Shown: piece by piece, positions 8,221 to 21,747 of the stretch
How positions within the stretch are numbered: position 1 is the stretch's first letter
How the letters are laid out: every line of letters begins with the position of its first letter
Origin: Nitrospirota bacterium
GTDB taxonomy: Bacteria; Nitrospirota; Thermodesulfovibrionia; Thermodesulfovibrionales; UBA9159
Length of the DNA stretch: 64,000 nucleotides
Reading direction: 5' to 3'
NCBI GenBank assembly: GCA_963699545.1
Contig: CAVOUE010000004.1
Coordinates: forward strand, 143,410-207,409
Position numbers and translations under genes: made by a program
Notes under the pieces: model-generated
Seen by the model: only the letters and a program-made list of their open reading frames with translations
What the model was told of the DNA's origin: nothing
Databases searched by the model: none

Positions 8221-9552
8221 TTATTCCTCCTTGAGCAATCTCCAGAGGCTCGTTCTCGATATACCGAGGATCTCTGCCGCCTTTGATCTGTTGCCACCGA
8301 CCGTCTCAAGGATCTTCTCGGCATAGTCCTTGTTCAGTTCGTCAATAGTCAGCACCTGGCCCGGCTCGCGAGTTTCGATCTGGAACATGGTGAGGCTCTG
8401 GGGCAGACTCTCCGGTGTGATCACAGGGGTCTTCTCCAGTATTATCGCCCTTTCGATGATATTCTCCAGTTCCCTCACGTTGCCGGGGAAGCTGTAGCGC
8501 ATGAGGATCTCCATGGCCGGTTTCGCCATGCCCGTTATCTTTTTGCCCGACTTGGGAATGTGTTTCTGGAGCAGGTACGATGCAAGGGGTTCGATGTCGT
8601 CTTTTCTGTCCCTCAGTGCGGGAATGAATATCTCCATGACGTTCAGTCGGTAATAGAGGTCTTCCCTGAACCTGCCCTCTGAGATAAGGTTCTTTACCGG
8701 CTGATTCGTGGCAGCGACGAACCGCACATTCACCCTGATCGGCCTGGTCCCGCCCACTCTGTAGAATTCTCCCTCTTCGATCACCTTCAGGAGCTTTGCC
8801 TGGAGGTTCGGCGCCATCTCGGATATCTCGTCAAGGAAGAGGGTCCCCTGATCAGCGATCTCCACCAGTCCCTGTTTCGTCCTCACCGCGCCGGTGAAGG
8901 CCCCTTTTTCATGCCCGAAGAGCTCGCTGGCGAGGAGGTCTTCCGTCAGGGTCGCGCAATTGATCGAGAGGAAGGGCATGTTCTGCCTTCTGCTGGTAAA
9001 ATGTATGATCTTGGCGAGGAGGCTCTTGCCGACCCCTGTTTCGCCGGTGAGCAGCACATTGCAGTCCGAGTCCTTTATCCCTTCAATGACCTCCAGGATC
9101 TTCTTCATGCTCTCGCTCTTGGCGATGACGGAGATCGTCTTGTTCATTCCGAAGTAGGCCTTCAATGCCACGTTTTCTTTCCTCAGGACCTTTCGCTCGT
9201 GGATGTTCTTGACCTTCAGGATGAGTTCGTCAAGGTCAAAGGGTTTGGTGATGTATTCGTAGGCGCCTTTTTTCATCGCCTCCACCGCCGCACCGATGCT
9301 GCCGAAACCGGTCACGATCATTACCTCGATCTCCGGGTCTTTTTCCTTCGCCCTTTCGAGCAGTTCGATCCCGTTCATCTCGGGCATCCTGACATCAGTG
9401 ATGAGGACGTCGAAATCATCGCGCGTGATCTGCTCAAGGGCCTCACGTCCGTTGCGGGTGCCCGTCACGTCGTATCCTTCTCTCTTGAGAGTGTTGACGA
9501 GGTGCTTGAGGGTTATTTCCTCGTCCTCAGCGATAATTATCTTGAAATTCAT
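8221..9552 (-). CDS. sigma54-dependent NtrC-family response regulator
   Basis: Receiver (AEDE, TDVRMP, KPF), Walker A GETGVGKS, GAFTGA, Fis-type HTH. Confidence 0.95.
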   Translation of the reverse strand: MNFKIIIAEDEEITLKHLVNTLKREGYDVTGTRNGREALEQITRDDFDVLITDVRMPEMNGIELLERAKEKDPEIEVMIVTGFGSIGAAVEAMKKGAYEYITKPFDLDELILKVKNIHERKVLRKENVALKAYFGMNKTISVIAKSESMKKILEVIEGIKDSDCNVLLTGETGVGKSLLAKIIHFTSRRQNMPFLSINCATLTEDLLASELFGHEKGAFTGAVRTKQGLVEIADQGTLFLDEISEMAPNLQAKLLKVIEEGEFYRVGGTRPIRVNVRFVAATNQPVKNLISEGRFREDLYYRLNVMEIFIPALRDRKDDIEPLASYLLQKHIPKSGKKITGMAKPAMEILMRYSFPGNVRELENIIERAIILEKTPVITPESLPQSLTMFQIETREPGQVLTIDELNKDYAEKILETVGGNRSKAAEILGISRTSLWRLLKEE

Positions 9553-13745: not shown

Positions 13746-14834
13746 TTATATCTTACCATGCTCCAGAACTTCCTGTGCCGCCTGACGCTCCGCCCTGCGT
13801 CCCTGCCACATGGCCTTCAGGATTATAAAGGCTCCGGAAAGGAGGGCAAATGCCATTATAGCAAAGCTTGTGCTCTTCAATATTTTCACCGCAGACTCAC
13901 TTAGTGTCCCTATGATCCCCAGTTGTGACATATAAACCGGTACCATCAATCCGCGGCTGAAAAGAACAATAACCATTATTACGCCCATGACCATTTTAAT
14001 CATGACGGGCTTTACGTAAGTGGTTCCCATGGCGCCCAACTGGATGCCGAAGAGAGAGCCTGCCAGGATGATCATGGCGAGTCTGATGTCGACCAAACCA
14101 TGCATAGCATATTTGAATGATCCCCCGAGGCCCATAACAAACGCTATCACCAGTTCCGATGCAGAGGCCATCAAACTTGGCGCGCCAAGGACATAAATCA
14201 TGGCGGGGACGCCGATGAAACCTCCCACCGCAATGGTCGCTGCCAGCATGCCTGTTGCGAAACCGAGAGGTATAGTAAAGAGCACGGAAATCTTCGCATT
14301 CAAGCACTTGAAATAAACCATAGTGCCGGGAATATTTATGGACTGCACCCAGTGCGCCAGTTTGGTAACCGTTTCTTCCTCATGCGAGGTTCCTGACCTG
14401 TTGGTCTTCCATGCATCCCGAAGCACAAAGCCGCCCACAACCGCCAGTATCACGACGAAAGCCGCGCTCACGTAAAGGTTTGAGCCTGCTTCTCCAAATG
14501 CCTTCTTGATGCTCTCCTGGATATGGGCGCCATAGAGAACGCCTGCCTCAGCAGAAATGCCGAGGACTATGCCCATCTTGACGTCAACCTGTCCGTATTT
14601 TGCGCGCTTGAGAGCACCGATAAGCGCTTTCGGGAACTTATGGCACATATTACTTGCCACGGCTACAAGTCCGGGCACGCCCATGCTCATCATCGCAGGC
14701 GTGAGAACAAAAGCGCCACCTGAGCCGATAAATCCACTCACAAGACCCCCGACGAATCCTACGAAGAAAAGGTAGATGATATGTGCGGTATCGAGATTGA
14801 TGAAATTGGATGCCTGATTTACTATGTCGTGCAC
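13746..14834 (-). CDS. TauE/SafE family exporter, paralog 2
   Basis: GLVSGFIGSGGAFVLTP and GMLAATIAVGGFIGVP repeats; multi-pass hydrophobic. Confidence 0.9.
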   Translation of the reverse strand: MHDIVNQASNFINLDTAHIIYLFFVGFVGGLVSGFIGSGGAFVLTPAMMSMGVPGLVAVASNMCHKFPKALIGALKRAKYGQVDVKMGIVLGISAEAGVLYGAHIQESIKKAFGEAGSNLYVSAAFVVILAVVGGFVLRDAWKTNRSGTSHEEETVTKLAHWVQSINIPGTMVYFKCLNAKISVLFTIPLGFATGMLAATIAVGGFIGVPAMIYVLGAPSLMASASELVIAFVMGLGGSFKYAMHGLVDIRLAMIILAGSLFGIQLGAMGTTYVKPVMIKMVMGVIMVIVLFSRGLMVPVYMSQLGIIGTLSESAVKILKSTSFAIMAFALLSGAFIILKAMWQGRRAERQAAQEVLEHGKI

Positions 14835-14835
14835 G

Positions 14836-15081
14836 TTATTTTACCTCCTTTCTCTTTTTTGAGGCCTCGATACCCAAAACTGTCCAGAAATTGCCTGTAA
14901 ATGAGCCATGAAAGAAAGAGAAGATGAACGCCGTCAGGACCGGCAATATGGCATATAATCCGCCCCTGCCGACATATTCATTCACAAGATCTTGCTTCAC
15001 TAACAGGATTGTGTACAGCGCTAATGAAATAACCCCCATAAGTATCAACTTGCCTATGGGCTTTTTCTTTGTTCTTCCCAT
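14836..15081 (-). CDS. Small two-TM membrane protein adjacent to TauE
   Basis: 81 aa, AGGAGG RBS, two hydrophobic helices, FFHGSFTGNFW; ends 1 bp before the TauE start. Confidence 0.8.
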   Translation of the reverse strand: MGRTKKKPIGKLILMGVISLALYTILLVKQDLVNEYVGRGGLYAILPVLTAFIFSFFHGSFTGNFWTVLGIEASKKRKEVK

Positions 15082-15130: not shown

Positions 15131-15600
15131 TCAGACACTGTCAGCCACAACTACCAGCGGGCACTGGAGATTCCGCCATGCATCGGAAAGCCCTGTGCCT
15201 TTCCCCTTGCAGTCAACCTCCAGGTTCTCTGTCGACTCGATGACCGCAAAGAGGATCTCTTTTTCAACGCGGTGTAGTCGATGATCGCCTGTTTCAGACA
15301 CCCGCTTCTCTGAACCAGCCGGTGGCTGATCCCTTCTTTCCCTAATTCTGAGATGCATTCATCAAACGCCGTGTCCGGAGCATCGGTGGATGAGACATAC
15401 AGAATATCCAGACCCGCTCCGATCCTTTTACAGGTATTCATGGCGTATCTGAATGTTCTTCTGTCCACCTGCCCTTTCATGAGCGCGAGCAGGACCCTTC
15501 TCTCGTCCTTCAGGAATTCCCTGGCTGTTTCAAACTCCCCTTCCTCTGCAAAGGAAACCGCAGACATCAGGTCTTCTATCTTCTTCTTCATGCTCCTCAT
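15131..15600 (-). CDS. USP-like protein with N-terminal SAVSFAEEGE motif; frameshift near 15265
   Basis: ORFs 15151..15600 and 15131..15358 join; RVLLAL...YAMNTCKRIGAGLDILYV...CPLVVV. Confidence 0.7.
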
Positions 15601-15608
15601 GGTAGCGG

Positions 15609-15782
15609 TTACCTTTTCGCTCCGGGTGCCGAAATCCGTGCCGTTTTCCGTGCAACCTGGGTATCACGCTTCCGATCCCTTGCCTCCTCCCGCATGATTT
15701 CCCTGGCTGTTTCAAACTCGCCAGCCTCCGCAAAGGTGATTGCTGTGAAGATCTGTTCAAATTTCTTTGTGAATCCTTTCAT
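15609..15782 (-). CDS. 57-aa small protein with TAITFAEAGE motif
   Basis: ATG at 15782 with AGGAGG RBS; MKGFTKKFEQIFTAITFAEAGEFETAREIM. Confidence 0.75.
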   Translation of the reverse strand: MKGFTKKFEQIFTAITFAEAGEFETAREIMREEARDRKRDTQVARKTARISAPGAKR

Positions 15783-15819
15783 TATCTTGTTCCTCCTTTT
15801 ACTGATTACCTTTCTTATT

Positions 15820-15834
15820 ACATGTTTCGTGCCA
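15820..15834 (-). promoter_or_regulatory. sigma54-like promoter with variant -12
   Basis: Minus strand TGGCACGAAACATGT: perfect -24 element, GT instead of GC at -12. Confidence 0.55.
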
Positions 15835-16127
15835 AGCGCGTTCACAGACCTAACCAGCTGAAATTAAGTGGATATTATCTTCTGTCAGACGTGAGCAGAA
15901 AATCTTGGAAGATGCAAAGTGCAACAGGAATAAGATCGCGGTGAGAGGATGGCGCCATAAATCGGCCTGCGGGCTACCGGCAGGACCAAAAAATATACTG
16001 TTGATATTTGCAATGGCAGCAGACTATATGAAACGCCACGGGAGAGAGAGACCAAATCTTGTTCAAGACGGAGAACATGATACAATTGGGTAGTAAACTC
16101 CAGGAACAGGAAAGGGCAGGTTCCTTT

Positions 16128-16574
16128 ATGCCGCATGCCGGATTAATGGATGAGAGTGCCATGGGACCAGAGGAAGGACCGTTACAGCGGGCGAGACTTC
16201 ACATTCGGGGTGGCAGGAGAAGGTTGCGACAGGGGAAGCTGCCCGCCGGAATTGTCACCCTTTACGATGCAGTTTGTTCGGCCCTCGAATGGTATTTTGC
16301 ATCCCCCGGGCGAAGGGAGGGGCTGATTATCAATGAAGATGATGACCTCCGGGATGATAAAACCCTTTATGAGATATTAACTCGCTCCGGGGTGCTCGAC
16401 GGTCGTTTTGATTACAAAGCGTTTAACAAGCTGATAGAAAGGGTGTTGTATACCGACTCTGTGGATTTTGATCACCAGGAGATGTTGCATGAAGTTGAAT
16501 CCTTCATGACCCGGCTTGGCGTCATGCCCTTTGATGAAGGAGAGCTTCCCCCGGAGGACCCCTCAACGTTCTAA
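16128..16574 (+). CDS. Hypothetical protein (start uncertain)
   Basis: Protein-like ORF MPHAGLMDE...LPPEDPSTF filling the gap, convergent with lon. Confidence 0.7.
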   Translation: MPHAGLMDESAMGPEEGPLQRARLHIRGGRRRLRQGKLPAGIVTLYDAVCSALEWYFASPGRREGLIINEDDDLRDDKTLYEILTRSGVLDGRFDYKAFNKLIERVLYTDSVDFDHQEMLHEVESFMTRLGVMPFDEGELPPEDPSTF

Positions 16575-16604: not shown

Positions 16605-18605
16605 TCAGTTATTGCCCAGGACCAGTGCAACAGCTTCCTCAATCCTGTCCACCAGGTGGATTGAGATATCTCTTCTGACATCTTCGCCGAGGCTGTCGAT
16701 ATCGGCCTTGTTCCTCAACGGGAATACCACGGTTCCTACTCCTGCGCGCCGCGCCGCCAGTATCTTTTCCTTAACCCCTCCAACGGGGAGTATACTTCCG
16801 CTCAGCGTCAATTCACCGGAAATTGCTACGTCCCTTCTTGCCTGTTTTCCCATGAGAAGGGAGAGGAGTGCTATGGCGATGGTGGCTCCTGCGGAGGGAC
16901 CGTCCTTCGGGGTCGCTCCGGCAGGGACATGAATATGGATATCGTGGGTATCAAAGAAATCATCCCTGATATGGAAAAAGGAGGCATTGCTCCGTATATA
17001 GCTCAGCGCTGCCTGGGCCGACTCCCGCATAACGTTCCCCAGAGAGCCGGTCAGGATGAGTTCCTTATTCCCCTTCATTTTCGCCGCTTCCACAAAGATA
17101 ATATCTCCCCCTACGTCGGTCCGCACGAGACCTGTGGCAACCCCGATCCTGCCGGTTTCATCAGCAACTTCAAAGAAATATTTTCTCGGACCGAGGAATT
17201 TCTCCACTTCCTCAGAGGTGACCGTGATATTCTCTGCGGCTTTGTGGTGGACGAATTGAGAGGCGATCTTGCGGCAGACCGTGGCGATCTGTCTCTCAAG
17301 GTCTCTGATGCCTGCCTCCCGGGTATGTTCCTGGACGATTTTCAGAAGGGCGTCGGCGGTGAACTCGGGCGGATAATCCGCCAAACCCTGCTCCCGTATC
17401 TGCCTTGGCACAAGATACCCCAGAGCGATCTTTACCTTTTCATCCTCGGCATAGCCGGTGAACTCCATGATTTCCATGCGGTCTCTGAGAGGGTCTTGAA
17501 TAACGTCAGGGATATTCGCAGTTACGATGAACAGAACGTTTGAGAGATCGAAGGGAACGTCGAGGTAATGGTCAATGAAGCTGTGGTTCTGTTCCGGGTC
17601 AAGCACCTCCAGAAGGGCAGAGGCAGAATCACCCTTGAACTCCTGCCCGATCTTGTCCACCTCATCCAGCATGATGAGCGGATTGATGACCTGAGAGCGG
17701 CGTATCTCCTCAATGATGCGTCCCGGCATCGCCCCGGCATAAGTCCTCCGGTGACCCCGTATCTCAGCTTCGTCCTTTATTCCGCCCAGGGAAATACGGG
17801 TGAATTTTCTTCCCAGGGCATCGGCCACGGCCCTCCCCAGAGAGGTCTTCCCTGTCCCAGGGGGTCCCGCAAAGCACAGGACAGAACCCCGTGAGGATAT
17901 GGTGGATGTTCGTTTGCTCACGGCCTCCCTGACCGTCCCTCTCACCTCGTCCAGTTTAAAGGGCTTCGTGATGTAGTGGAATGCCCCTTTCTTCATAGCC
18001 TCGACAGCCGAATCCACCGTTGCATACGCGGTTATCATGATGACCTTGGAATCAGGGTATCGAACCCTCGCTTTTTCGAGAAGTTCGACCCCGTTCACCT
18101 TCTCCATTTTCAGGTCGGTCATGATAACATCGAAATCCGAGGTGCGCATTCTTTCCAGGGCTTCCATGCCATTGGCCGCAGTGACAACAACGTAGTCCTC
18201 TTTCTTCAGTATGTGTTCCAGATTCTTTCTTGCAATCTCCTCGTCATCAACCACCAGGATCCTGGGTTTCTTGTTCGCTATCAATATCTTCACTGCGAGA
18301 TGATCCAGAATTCGTTCCTTGATCCGGTCCAGACCGTAATGCCGCTCATTCAGGATCCTCTCCGCCCTGCCGATGTCCAGATTGTCTTCCGTCTTCTTGT
18401 TCCAGGGAATGCTCAGGAGATATTCGAGATAGGTGAGCCCAATGGCATACTCCGCCGCAGATGGACTTATCTTCGACAGAGTCTCAAGTTCCCTGTGGGC
18501 GATCTGGAGGACACGGTCGGGCATTGCCGACGAGGTGAACATGTCCCTCAGCCCGTCGATGGTTGATGCCGGGAGTTGTTCCCCTGTCTTTTTAAAGAAA
18601 CTCAT
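16605..18605 (-). CDS. lon: Lon protease lacking the N-terminal domain and carrying an inserted receiver (REC) domain
   Basis: HYGLDRIKERIL, then REC (aa ~114-230), Walker A GPPGTGKT, RRTYAGAMPG, Walker B LDEVDK, catalytic PKDGPSAG and GGVKEK. Confidence 0.95.
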   Translation of the reverse strand: MSFFKKTGEQLPASTIDGLRDMFTSSAMPDRVLQIAHRELETLSKISPSAAEYAIGLTYLEYLLSIPWNKKTEDNLDIGRAERILNERHYGLDRIKERILDHLAVKILIANKKPRILVVDDEEIARKNLEHILKKEDYVVVTAANGMEALERMRTSDFDVIMTDLKMEKVNGVELLEKARVRYPDSKVIMITAYATVDSAVEAMKKGAFHYITKPFKLDEVRGTVREAVSKRTSTISSRGSVLCFAGPPGTGKTSLGRAVADALGRKFTRISLGGIKDEAEIRGHRRTYAGAMPGRIIEEIRRSQVINPLIMLDEVDKIGQEFKGDSASALLEVLDPEQNHSFIDHYLDVPFDLSNVLFIVTANIPDVIQDPLRDRMEIMEFTGYAEDEKVKIALGYLVPRQIREQGLADYPPEFTADALLKIVQEHTREAGIRDLERQIATVCRKIASQFVHHKAAENITVTSEEVEKFLGPRKYFFEVADETGRIGVATGLVRTDVGGDIIFVEAAKMKGNKELILTGSLGNVMRESAQAALSYIRSNASFFHIRDDFFDTHDIHIHVPAGATPKDGPSAGATIAIALLSLLMGKQARRDVAISGELTLSGSILPVGGVKEKILAARRAGVGTVVFPLRNKADIDSLGEDVRRDISIHLVDRIEEAVALVLGNN

Positions 18606-18781
18606 CCTTCACCGGATTTCATCGTTATTCCGCTGCATGCCTTCTATAAGAATAGCATTGTTTCTCCGTGTATTCCAGCGACGAGGTTCTTTGTCTTGTG
18701 CGTGAGACAATTGTCCCCTGCATTGTTGCATGAGTTTTACCTGATGTTGCTTATTGCAATATCACCTGTTAGAATAAAAAT

Positions 18782-20305
18782 ATGCTCAGATATCAGTCGA
18801 GTATCCGGCAAAAGATAACTCTCGTATACTACGGCACGGTTGCCGTTGTTGTTGGTCTCTCTCTTTTTGCCTTCCTTGAACTCAGGTTCCTGGAAAAAAA
18901 GATAATGTTCGGAGAGGTGATTTCGGAATTCTTTGATACGACATTGGAGGTCAGAAGATTTGAGAAGAACTTTTTTCTCTACGCGAAGCAGGACGACTAC
19001 CGGGAAAATGCCCGCTATGTGGAAAAGGCCCAGGAACTGCTCGATAAGAATCTGAAGGGTCTGAGCACCATTACCGAGCTTGGGCAGATCATCTCTCTGA
19101 GAAGCGACCTCAGACGCTATCAGGATCTCATGAGAGAATACGCGTCCGCCGTTCCTGAGGTGGTGAGACCAGCACGGGGCGGCGGTCCTGAACAGCACGG
19201 AATGGAGAGAACGATCCTGGAGGGAAAAATAAGGGAAACGGGCAAGAACATTATAGCGGTCTCAGAAGAGATATCGAAGACCGAGCGGAAAAATCTTCAA
19301 TCCATACTCTACAAGTCCCAGAGAATGCTCATTCTCTCCATTTTCTCCCTTTCACTTCTGGCCCTTCTCATCGGCCAGGTGTTATCGAGGATGGTTGTGC
19401 GGCCCCTCAAATCCCTGGAAGAGAGCATGAGTCGGATTGCCGAGGGAAGGTTTGAGAAGGTATCCATACATTCCCATGACAGGGAGATCGTATCCCTCGC
19501 CACCGCCTTTAATAAGATGCTCAAGGAACTGGAGTTGAGGCAGAAACATCTTGTCCAGTCAGAGAAACTGGCATCCCTTGGAACGCTCCTCTCCGGGGTG
19601 GCCCATGAATTGAACAACCCCCTGTCGAACATCTCCTCGTCATGCCAGATACTTATGGAAGAGATCGGAGAGGCTGACGGGGAATATAAGAAGGAATTGC
19701 TCTCACAGATCGATGAGCAGACGGACAGGGCCCGGAACATCGTCCGTTCCCTGCTTGAGTTCTCGCGGGAAAAGGAATTCAGGAAAGAGACGCTGCCGCT
19801 CAAGAGTCTTTTCGAAGAGACCCTCCGGTTTGTGAAAGGTCAGGTGCCGACGAAGATTTCGGTCACCCTCGATATTCCCGAGGATATCGCCATACGTGCG
19901 GACAAACAGAGAATTCAGCAAGCATTTCTCAATCTCGTGAAGAATGCCATAGAGGCGGTTGCTGACGAAGGAGAAGTGGTCATCAGGGCGAAGAAACACA
20001 GGGCCATGGATAAGACCGGGGAAACAGCTGAGCTCTACAGCACCATGAAATATCGCGGCAAGTGCACCATCGAAGGAGATACCGTTGATATCGAAATAAG
20101 GGACACCGGTGCCGGGATAGCCCCGGAGATCCTTCACAGGGTCTTTGATCCGTTCTTCAGCACGAAGGATGTGGGGAAGGGATCCGGTCTTGGGCTCTTC
20201 ATCGTCCACGAGATCATAGAAGAGCATGATGGTTGTATCGCCGTGGAGAGCGAAAGGGGAAAGGGAACGGTCTTTTTTATAAGTCTTCCGACCAGGGTCG
20301 AATGA
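18782..20305 (+). CDS. HAMP sensor histidine kinase
   Basis: Two TM segments, HAMP, GVAHELNNPL, NLVKNA, DTGAGI, GSGLGL. Confidence 0.95.
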   Translation: MLRYQSSIRQKITLVYYGTVAVVVGLSLFAFLELRFLEKKIMFGEVISEFFDTTLEVRRFEKNFFLYAKQDDYRENARYVEKAQELLDKNLKGLSTITELGQIISLRSDLRRYQDLMREYASAVPEVVRPARGGGPEQHGMERTILEGKIRETGKNIIAVSEEISKTERKNLQSILYKSQRMLILSIFSLSLLALLIGQVLSRMVVRPLKSLEESMSRIAEGRFEKVSIHSHDREIVSLATAFNKMLKELELRQKHLVQSEKLASLGTLLSGVAHELNNPLSNISSSCQILMEEIGEADGEYKKELLSQIDEQTDRARNIVRSLLEFSREKEFRKETLPLKSLFEETLRFVKGQVPTKISVTLDIPEDIAIRADKQRIQQAFLNLVKNAIEAVADEGEVVIRAKKHRAMDKTGETAELYSTMKYRGKCTIEGDTVDIEIRDTGAGIAPEILHRVFDPFFSTKDVGKGSGLGLFIVHEIIEEHDGCIAVESERGKGTVFFISLPTRVE

Positions 20306-20373: not shown

Positions 20374-21747
20374 GTGATGCGAATGCAAAACGGTGCAAGA
20401 ATATTGATCGTGGACGATGAAAAGATCGCCCTCAGGAACCTCGAACATGTAATGAAAAAGGAGGGCTATGCAGTAGCGGCCACGCAGAGCGGCCAGAATG
20501 CCCTCAAACTCCTGGAAGAGCAGCAGTTCGATGTTGTTCTCACCGACCTTAGAATGGAAAAGGTCGACGGGATGCAGATACTGAAGAGATGTCGCGAACT
20601 CTCTCCGGATACCGAGGTGATCATGATAACAGGCTTTGCCACGCTGGAGTCGGCGGTGAATACAATGAAGCACGGGGCCTTCTTTTACATAGCAAAACCT
20701 TTTAAGTTGGACGAGGTGAGGAAAGTGGTGAGGGAGGCTGTGGAAAAAGTGAGGCTGAAGACCGAGAACAGACAGCTGAGAGAGCAGCTCGAGAAGTATC
20801 AGGGGAAGGTGAAGATCATCACCCAGGATGCCAACATGGAGAGACTCCTGGATACGGCGCGGCAGATCGCTCCCACTGACTGCAATGTCATCATTACGGG
20901 AGAGAGCGGCACGGGCAAGGAACTGTTTGCCCGATACATTCATTTCAACAGTAAACGTTCTGAGGGCCCCTTTTCTGCAATAAATTGCGGGGCGTTTACT
21001 GAAGAACTTCTGGGGAACGAGCTCTTCGGCCATGAAAAAGGCGCTTTTACCGGCGCCTCCACGATGAAGAAGGGATTGATAGAGACAGCCTCGGGAGGCA
21101 CGCTTTTTCTTGACGAGATCACAGAGATGCCCCCTTCCATGCAGGTGAAACTGCTGAGGGTGGTGCAGGAGAGGGAGGTTCTGAGGCTTGGCGGAACAGA
21201 GCCGGTGCGCGTGGATGTGAGATGTATCGCTGCGACCAACAGGGATCTGCAGGACGCGACAAGAACGGGGCACTTCAGACAGGACCTCTATTTCAGACTG
21301 AATGTGGTGTCGCTGCATATACCGCCCCTTTCGGAACGGAAAGAGGACATACCCCTGTTGGGCTACTATTTCCTGAAGAAGTATTCCTCCCTGATGAAAA
21401 AGAATGTCACGGAGATATCCCCTGAGGTGATCACGCTCCTCATGAACTACGGTTTCCCGGGGAATGTGAGGGAACTGGAGAATATCACAGAGCGGGGTGT
21501 TGCCCTTTCCAACGGGACGACCATTGAGGCGGCACATCTCCCCGAAGACCTGAGGGAACTCAGCATTCGGACATTCAGGAAGAGAGAGGGGAAGATCCCT
21601 TCCCTGGAAGAGCAGGAAATGGCGTATATCCAGTGGGTGTTGAATGAGGTGGGTGGCAACAAGACACTGACCGCCCAGATACTGGGAATAGACAGGGTCT
21701 CCCTCTGGAGGAAGCTGAAGAGGTACGGATTAGAGTCCCAGCTGTAA
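20374..21747 (+). CDS. sigma54-dependent NtrC-family response regulator
   Basis: REC, GESGTGKE, GAFTGA, HTH. Confidence 0.95.
   Translation: MMRMQNGARILIVDDEKIALRNLEHVMKKEGYAVAATQSGQNALKLLEEQQFDVVLTDLRMEKVDGMQILKRCRELSPDTEVIMITGFATLESAVNTMKHGAFFYIAKPFKLDEVRKVVREAVEKVRLKTENRQLREQLEKYQGKVKIITQDANMERLLDTARQIAPTDCNVIITGESGTGKELFARYIHFNSKRSEGPFSAINCGAFTEELLGNELFGHEKGAFTGASTMKKGLIETASGGTLFLDEITEMPPSMQVKLLRVVQEREVLRLGGTEPVRVDVRCIAATNRDLQDATRTGHFRQDLYFRLNVVSLHIPPLSERKEDIPLLGYYFLKKYSSLMKKNVTEISPEVITLLMNYGFPGNVRELENITERGVALSNGTTIEAAHLPEDLRELSIRTFRKREGKIPSLEEQEMAYIQWVLNEVGGNKTLTAQILGIDRVSLWRKLKRYGLESQL

Follow-up and report, generated by a model that had tools for sequence, protein, structure and literature searches.

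Can a two-component receiver be built into the motor of an ATP-dependent protease, and what would it do there? The question is raised by a gene in a 64,000-nucleotide stretch of genome from a Nitrospirota bacterium (contig CAVOUE010000004.1, positions 143,410 to 207,409; this whole stretch is called the window below, and coordinates refer to it). The gene, at 16605..18605 on the minus strand, encodes a LonA-type protease of 666 residues that has no N-terminal domain and carries an inserted receiver (REC) domain; we call it REC-Lon. A sensor histidine kinase as well as a sigma-54 enhancer-binding response regulator (enhancer-binding protein, EBP) are encoded beside it. Our analysis establishes the architecture of the protein, the integrity of its catalytic residues, its conservation and its neighbourhood, and it establishes that the receivers of REC-Lon and of the EBP are nearest paralogues.

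A receiver inserted before Walker A

The open reading frame (ORF) starts with ATG and is the longest reading of its frame, with no upstream extension possible; its product matches cluster P0001 of our homologue search at 100%. Residues 1-113 (18267..18605, minus) form a helical segment equivalent to the region just before the LonA AAA+ core, with helices at 14-25, 30-44, 51-65, 78-88 and 93-111 in an AlphaFold model, the last being the HYGLDRIKERILDHLAV helix. Then comes the REC domain, at residues 116-225 (17931..18260, minus; PF00072 Response_reg, E 1.9e-30, 105.7 bits against a cut-off of 30.2), with D120/D121, D164, T192 and K214. The AAA+ alpha/beta subdomain occupies residues 243-382 (17460..17879, minus; Pfam AAA) and contains a Walker A motif, GPPGTGKT, at G247-T254 (its lysine being K253), and Walker B at D314/E315. 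It is followed by the Lon AAA+ lid at residues 405-458 (17232..17393, minus; PF22667, 61.7 bits) and by the S16 protease domain at residues 462-663 (16617..17222, minus; Lon_C, E 7.5e-78) with its Ser571-Lys614 dyad. The Pfam E-values exclude a chance origin of these matches. K614 lies 43 residues past S571, and with the alignment offset of 108 to E. coli Lon (6u5z) the two fit S679 and K722 of that enzyme.

By its score with the equivalog model TIGR00763 ('lon', endopeptidase La; 694.9 bits for a cut-off of 608.05, the match falling into two stretches) REC-Lon is a LonA-type protease. It stays below the cut-off of the E. coli-type model NF008053 (552 versus 891) and of the LonB/LonC-type models TIGR00764 (lon_rel; 95.7 versus 516.6), TIGR02902 (74.6 versus 723.3) and TIGR02903 (99.4 versus 678.8). 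The substrate-binding domain LON_substr_bdg (PF02190) has no match in REC-Lon, while the same model detects the other Lon of the genome. Residues 14-113 align to residues 249-348 of Thermus thermophilus Lon (7p6u), and since the protein starts at about residue 249 of that structure, the first ~248 residues of a canonical LonA, i.e. the PUA-like N domain and a long helix, are missing. Residues 16-109 align to residues 10-103 of Bacillus subtilis Lon (3m6a) and residues 235-659 to residues 103-526; because these flanks are contiguous in 3m6a, residues 110-234 (~125) are a clean insertion with no Lon residues lost. The receiver is placed between the helix that precedes Walker A and strand beta1.

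These results bear out the original prediction, made from the DNA letters and translations, which had the protein start at the helical region before the AAA+ module and lack an N-terminal substrate domain, a point on which Pfam and the 7p6u alignment agree. It had also placed a complete REC between the HYGL...LAV helix and Walker A, at nucleotides 17916-18266 (residues 114-230, a correspondence that holds), which fits both the Pfam match and the insertion found here; the acidic pair DD, phosphoacceptor D164 and conserved T and K that it described are the residues listed above. The Walker A/B and Ser-Lys motifs, which it called intact, were all located and proved invariant in the family alignment described below.

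The model, built on that 43-sequence alignment, has a mean predicted local distance difference test score (pLDDT) of 80.6 and a predicted template modelling score (pTM) of 0.59. In it, residues 115-236 take the (beta-alpha)5 fold, five strands alternating with five helices, and pLDDT in the REC block is mostly 82-91, with one block of 70 at residues 191-200. Three residues separate helix 93-111 from REC beta1 (115-119), and five lie between the long REC alpha5 (218-236) and AAA+ beta1 (242-246), which leads to Walker A. Both modelled linkers being so short, receiver and nucleotide-binding core would be tied closely together at two points, one of them predicted to be a helix of the alpha4-beta5-alpha5 signalling face; the linkers between the REC and Lon parts are short and apparently rigid. 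The top Foldseek match of the model is the LonA chain 6u5z_A (E 7.2e-56), followed by 6on2, 4ypl, LONP1 and 7p6u.

A domain-architecture search had been suggested with the original prediction. The arrangement is present in all of the best 120 clusters of the homologue search, in 42 genome loci and in 88 of 602 sampled genomes of two phyla. The clusters, the best 120 listed of 8000 scored candidates, all contain Response_reg, AAA and Lon_C, with query coverage of 95-100% and identity of 69-100%; they come from NCBI, JGI, ENA and Logan, and most are named 'endopeptidase La', one 'response regulator'. From species-representative genomes 75 loci were taken, 42 of them with a near full-length REC-Lon in a single alignment, the remainder being contig-end partials, frameshift-split copies or ordinary Lons that match only residues ~216-663. 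The genomes were sampled with a junction probe of 181 residues (residues 85-265) that spans both REC-Lon junctions and was counted when matched end to end without stops. It was found in 51 of 301 Nitrospirota genomes (the window's own included) and in 37 of 301 genomes of Thermodesulfobacteriota, the phylum of Desulfosarcina widdelii, one of which has two copies. Extra matches in Nitrospirota include one genome with a partial copy at a contig end; in two others (G206:C29:11349-11849 and G209:C12:1252398-1252910) there are in-frame stops, which may mark pseudogenes or assembly errors.

In an alignment of 43 rows from the two phyla (the window protein, 33 of the 120 clusters, P0121 and eight locus translations) D120, D121, D164, K214, the entire Walker A, D314/E315, S571 and K614 are invariant, and T192 is kept in at least 90%. 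REC is at the same position (116-225 or 120-229) in four Thermodesulfobacteriota loci. Four of the longest family open frames (767-849 residues) were checked for PF02190 and none has it, so that there is no REC-Lon keeping the N domain among them.

A quick, unrooted maximum-likelihood tree of the AAA+-protease part was made with 22 REC-Lons (20 of the 42 loci, the window and P0121) and 31 canonical LonA, namely 30 representatives matched in two stretches and the LonA of the same genome. All 22 REC-Lons fall on one side of a branch with a Shimodaira-Hasegawa-like approximate likelihood ratio test (SH-aLRT) value of 96 and the 31 canonical proteins on the other, which is consistent with, and does not prove, a single origin of REC-Lon. 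In a library of representatives at 50% identity only P0121 and four fragments have the REC-Lon architecture. Long high-scoring proteins of this library were considered as remote REC-Lons and ruled out, as they have two or three tandem AAA modules and no REC. These tandem-AAA Lons (P0122-P0125, P0129-P0133, P0135, P0140, P0141, P0146, P0148, P0176 and P0249; 889-1675 residues) carry their two or three AAA modules before a single Lon_C; one has ankyrin repeats and one a LON N domain.

The canonical LonA of the genome, which lies outside the window (G000:C9:186666-189075; L001/L006), is split into a 244-residue frame with the N domain and an overlapping frame of 646 residues, the switch coming directly after an ...ASNLGL motif. 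The gene rpoN (C5:192763-193234) is likewise split over two frames. Both are probably assembly indel errors and no real pseudogenes.

Two similar receivers and a recurrent neighbourhood

The Lon REC and the REC of the neighbouring EBP are 58% identical over 117 residues. The genome has 30 receiver matches at E up to 1e-10, Lon REC itself included, and the EBP receiver is the closest of the 29 others (141 bits, against 113 bits and 48% identity for the runner-up). The alpha1 and beta5-alpha5 regions of receivers carry kinase specificity and dimer contacts. Here the EBP shares 10 of 16 and 11 of 12 positions with Lon REC, respectively, the next best receiver 8 of 16 and 9 of 12, and the remaining 27 only 2-7 of 16 on alpha1. 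The likeness is found elsewhere: in all 23 loci that hold both receivers they are 48-64% identical. A tree made by a quick method from 43 Lon-RECs, 27 EBP-RECs and 10 of the 28 other receivers of this genome groups them by protein type and not by organism, with the EBP-RECs as one group (support 89) and the Lon-RECs as two groups, 36 from Nitrospirota and 7 from Thermodesulfobacteriota (support 98). Given this grouping, the similarity appears to be old and maintained rather than the product of a recent duplication. The simplest reading of the likeness would be that both receivers are served by a shared kinase.

Another receiver protein, a 494-residue open frame, is encoded ~7 kb from lon. Its REC (~9214-9543, minus; G000:C4:152623-152952) ranks third in the genome by closeness to Lon REC, with 48% identity and 8/16 and 9/12 matches on alpha1 and beta5-alpha5.

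Divergent from lon lies the sensor histidine kinase gene (18782..20305, plus), whose 507-residue product has two hydrophobic segments and HAMP, HisKA and HATPase_c domains in Pfam. It is followed by the EBP gene (20374..21747, plus; 457 residues), a REC-Sigma54_activat-HTH_8 protein with a GAFTGA motif read from the sequence; rpoN is present in the genome. That kinase and EBP adjoin lon in the window was one outcome of the neighbourhood survey suggested by the original prediction. It covered the 42 REC-Lon loci, 21 of which have at least 5 kb of flank on both sides. An EBP orthologue is found in 22 of the 42 loci and 14 of the 21 full-flank loci, a kinase orthologue in 20 and 10, an orthologue of the TauE-family exporter described below in 18 and 10, and one of the Usp-like protein p149 in 25 and 13. 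Linkage of lon, kinase and EBP is thus frequent and not universal. Relatives show two placements of the kinase-EBP pair, divergent from lon as in the window or directly downstream in the order lon-kinase-EBP, and two of the Usp-like/TauE operon, which may be found downstream of lon or diverging from it. Neighbours in the four Thermodesulfobacteriota loci include CitMHS/TrkA_C or TauE transporters, a Usp protein, kinases and single-domain receivers; the D. widdelii locus has an EBP too.

In the window, lon is followed downstream, on its own strand (minus), by the Usp-like/TauE operon. This operon begins with a small ORF of 57 residues (15609..15782), read from the sequence, which has a strong ribosome-binding site and a AITFAEAGEFETARE motif. 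Next are p149, of 149 residues (15151..15600), weakly Usp-like (Usp E 0.17, below cut-off; 0.0012, also below cut-off, for its orthologue in locus L051), an ORF for a hydrophobic small protein of 81 residues (14836..15081) and a TauE/SafE-family anion exporter (13746..14834; PF01925, 123.1 bits). A near copy of the AITFAEAGEFETARE motif, SFAEEGEFETARE, opens p149, and the same coding words are found again upstream of p149 orthologues in L025, L033, L041 and L051; the proteins with the AITFAEAGEFETARE and SFAEEGEFETARE motifs are candidate substrates or regulators of the pathway. In most loci the orthologue aligns over no more than the first ~110-114 residues of p149, and in L007, the closest relative, the alignment spans 139 residues; the C-terminal tail of p149 here may be frameshift-affected or lineage-specific.

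Upstream of this operon is a candidate sigma-54-type promoter, TGGCACGAAACATGTA (15819..15834, minus). By itself this match is not significant: the consensus pattern with at most two mismatches has 30 matches in the window, and shuffled sequences have a mean of 26.4. With the pattern relaxed to TGGCAY-N6-TG[ACT]A, 19 of 34 loci have a sense match upstream of the p149 orthologue and none of the 34 an antisense one. A sense match upstream of lon is found in a single locus among 46, and none of 27 loci has a match upstream of the kinase; the 12 antisense matches upstream of lon, again in 46 loci, are the same promoters where the two operons diverge. The site at 15819-15834 is credible because it is conserved across loci, and on no other ground. 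No perfect palindrome upstream of the promoter recurs across loci, and an inverted-repeat search of two intergenic regions gave a single weak palindrome (18699-18722). Between lon and the promoter there is a 171-residue ORF (16059-16574, plus) with no Pfam match and a relative in L008 only (64% identity); it may not be a gene.

A probable pathway: one kinase with two outputs

What would the receiver do in the protease? We put at about 60% the probability that one kinase drives two outputs, transcription through the EBP and proteolysis through a Lon altered by phosphorylation. The adjoining transmembrane histidine kinase would phosphorylate both look-alike receivers, in a branched two-component pathway. 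Phosphorylated EBP would turn on the neighbouring, presumably sigma-54-dependent operon of the small ORF, the Usp-like protein and TauE, while phosphorylation of D164 would alter the activity of the Lon ATPase/protease ring or the assembly of the ring. A likely route for the signal into the motor would be REC helix alpha5, which is almost directly joined to AAA+ beta1 in the model. Transfer of phosphate to Lon REC and gating of proteolysis by phosphorylation are the most plausible reading of the adjoining kinase, the twin receiver of the EBP and the invariant phospho-acceptor residues. As the N domain is lost, REC-Lon is probably a specialised enzyme and no general quality-control protease; the genome encodes a separate canonical LonA besides it. 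Somewhat more tentative, a little short of even odds in our view, is that phosphorylation of the inserted receiver acts as a direct switch of ring assembly or ATPase, in a Lon without N domain that serves only a few substrates from within its pathway; the candidates would be either the sigma-54 regulator or the Usp-like protein and the small protein with the FAEAGEFETARE motif.

A system of this kind has been described in Desulfovibrio vulgaris. According to Rajeev et al. 2011 (PMC3333781), DVU3303 is a response regulator containing a Lon protease, found with the kinase DVU3304 and the sigma-54 regulator DVU3305, and a three-component system with phosphorylation-dependent protease activity is proposed for DVU3303-3305. 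The same paper names orthologues of DVU3305 in Thermodesulfovibrio yellowstonii, Thioalkalivibrio and Dechloromonas and reports a lon-protease response regulator associated with them 'in most of these genomes'. According to Trotter et al. 2023 (PMC10102598), DVU3303-3305 have pairwise cofitness above 0.9 and are detrimental in chlorate, an effect that the authors connect with the anion transporter DVU3299; the DVU3305 regulon is listed by Kazakov et al. 2015 (PMC4641369). It had been suspected from the outset that similar fusions might be annotated in sulfate reducers, and DVU3303 is one, as described in PMC3333781; the novelty that the original prediction implied falls away, since the family has already been described in Desulfovibrio.

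Several points weigh against our reading. EBP and kinase orthologues are both absent within 6 kb in 7 of the 21 full-flank loci (L011, L013, L016, L025, L038, L046 and L054). The conserved promoter has a -12 element that is mostly TTGTA or TTGAA where the consensus is TTGCA, and no sigma-54-type promoter was found ahead of lon in the window. A sister-group relation of Lon-RECs and EBP-RECs is not supported, as the receiver tree lacks resolution at its base, and with a pTM of only 0.59 the relative orientation of REC and AAA+ in the model is uncertain. The gene in the window, probably a DVU3303-type REC-Lon, is likened to DVU3303 by published description. In D. vulgaris lon heads the lon-kinase-EBP operon, from which we infer that polarity may account for part of the cofitness there. 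Finally, no biochemical or structural study of any REC-Lon was found in a full-text literature search, by which subscription journals are mostly uncovered.

Four other explanations were weighed. The one that survives best, which we nevertheless hold to be unlikely, is that REC takes over docking or substrate selection from the lost N domain and binds the EBP (or the kinase) for delivery to the protease; the consequence would be phosphorylation-dependent turnover of the pathway's own regulator instead of allosteric gating of the motor. A REC-EBP heterodimer is conceivable because Lon REC resembles the EBP receiver on the alpha4-beta5-alpha5 face. The absence of the N domain, in REC-Lon as in four of the longest family frames, agrees with docking, as do the 11 of 12 matches to the EBP in the beta5-alpha5 segment and the fact that NtrC-type receivers are the closest solved relatives after Spo0F. 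However, an orthologous EBP is not nearby in 7 of 21 full-flank loci, and the phospho-acceptor residues, unnecessary for a pure docking role, are invariant.

Rather less probable still is that Lon REC acts mainly as a phosphate sink or competitor that tunes the phosphate of the EBP, with the protease being constitutive. Sink receivers in branched pathways are well known from other two-component systems, a precedent that, like the kinase-docking features common to both receivers, speaks for such a role; a sink, however, needs neither splicing into the AAA+ core through what are very short linkers in the model nor the concurrent lack of the N domain that all members seen display. A degenerate REC that is a structural insert and plays no part in signalling is very improbable in view of its receiver score of 105.7 bits and of the conservation, in 43 sequences from two phyla, of D120, D121, D164 and K214 (invariant) and T192 (at least 90%). 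Misassembly or chimerism of the REC segment, which the likely indel errors elsewhere in the assembly (canonical lon and rpoN, each split over two frames) might bring to mind, is refuted by conservation of the same end-to-end architecture across independent sources, i.e. all of the best 120 clusters, 42 loci and 88 sampled genomes.

If phosphorylation of the inserted receiver does switch the motor directly, a single sensor kinase would command transcription as well as proteolysis, REC-Lon would be, as far as the literature searched shows, the first AAA+ protease gated in cis by two-component phosphorylation, and allosteric signals would have, at the insertion site, a new way into an AAA+ motor. 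Regulation of Lon is usually ascribed to substrates, adaptors or nucleotide state; with a receiver embedded in the motor, protein degradation would be coupled directly to a sensor kinase. Among sulfur-cycling anaerobes the family is common, and D. vulgaris offers a genetically tractable representative. For annotation, 16605..18605 (minus) should be named a response-regulator Lon, not a housekeeping 'endopeptidase La', and it belongs with the adjoining kinase, the sigma-54 regulator and the Usp-like/TauE operon.

REC-Lon among known systems

The DVU3303 system, as described in print, is the closest parallel. In both, REC and Lon are in one polypeptide, and a kinase and a sigma-54 regulator adjoin it. 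DVU3303 has beside it a target operon in which membrane and Usp-type proteins are encoded together with an anion transporter; its possible counterpart in the window has a clear TauE match, Usp similarity below cut-off and a conserved promoter whose -12 element departs from the consensus. The lon-kinase-EBP order of D. vulgaris is that of many related loci. The arrangement differs in that the kinase-EBP pair is divergent from lon here and downstream in D. vulgaris, whereas the Usp-like/TauE operon is downstream of lon here and divergent there; the transporter here is of the TauE family. The passages drawn on from the published description give no position of the receiver within Lon. What our analysis adds is the exact insertion point, the short linkers, the prevalence in two phyla, the REC-Lon group apart from canonical LonA, the EBP receiver as closest paralogue across loci and the conserved promoter with its unusual -12 element.

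With canonical LonA (E. coli 6u5z, B. subtilis 3m6a, T. thermophilus 7p6u) REC-Lon has in common the AAA+ module, the lid and the S16 domain with its Ser-Lys dyad; identity is 46-56% to the two-stretch representatives listed and 34-38% over the Foldseek structural alignments. It begins where the engineered N-truncated constructs 3m6a, 6on2 and 4ypl begin. Unlike canonical LonA it has no LON substrate-binding domain, carries a 125-residue REC before beta1 and Walker A, and forms a separate group in the tree.

In activators of the NtrC1/DctD type the REC controls ring assembly. There, too, a REC of the same subfamily stands directly upstream of an AAA+ P-loop, and 1ny5, 1zy2 and 3dzd are among the PDB matches. 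In these activators, however, REC precedes the whole AAA+ module, whereas in REC-Lon it is inserted after the first AAA+ helix, and their output is sigma-54 remodelling as against proteolysis.

Receiver-domain adaptors for ClpXP that act in trans are exemplified by RssB and CpdR. They share with the scheme proposed here the control of regulated proteolysis by a two-component receiver, yet they are separate binding proteins, while in REC-Lon the receiver is within the protease polypeptide itself.

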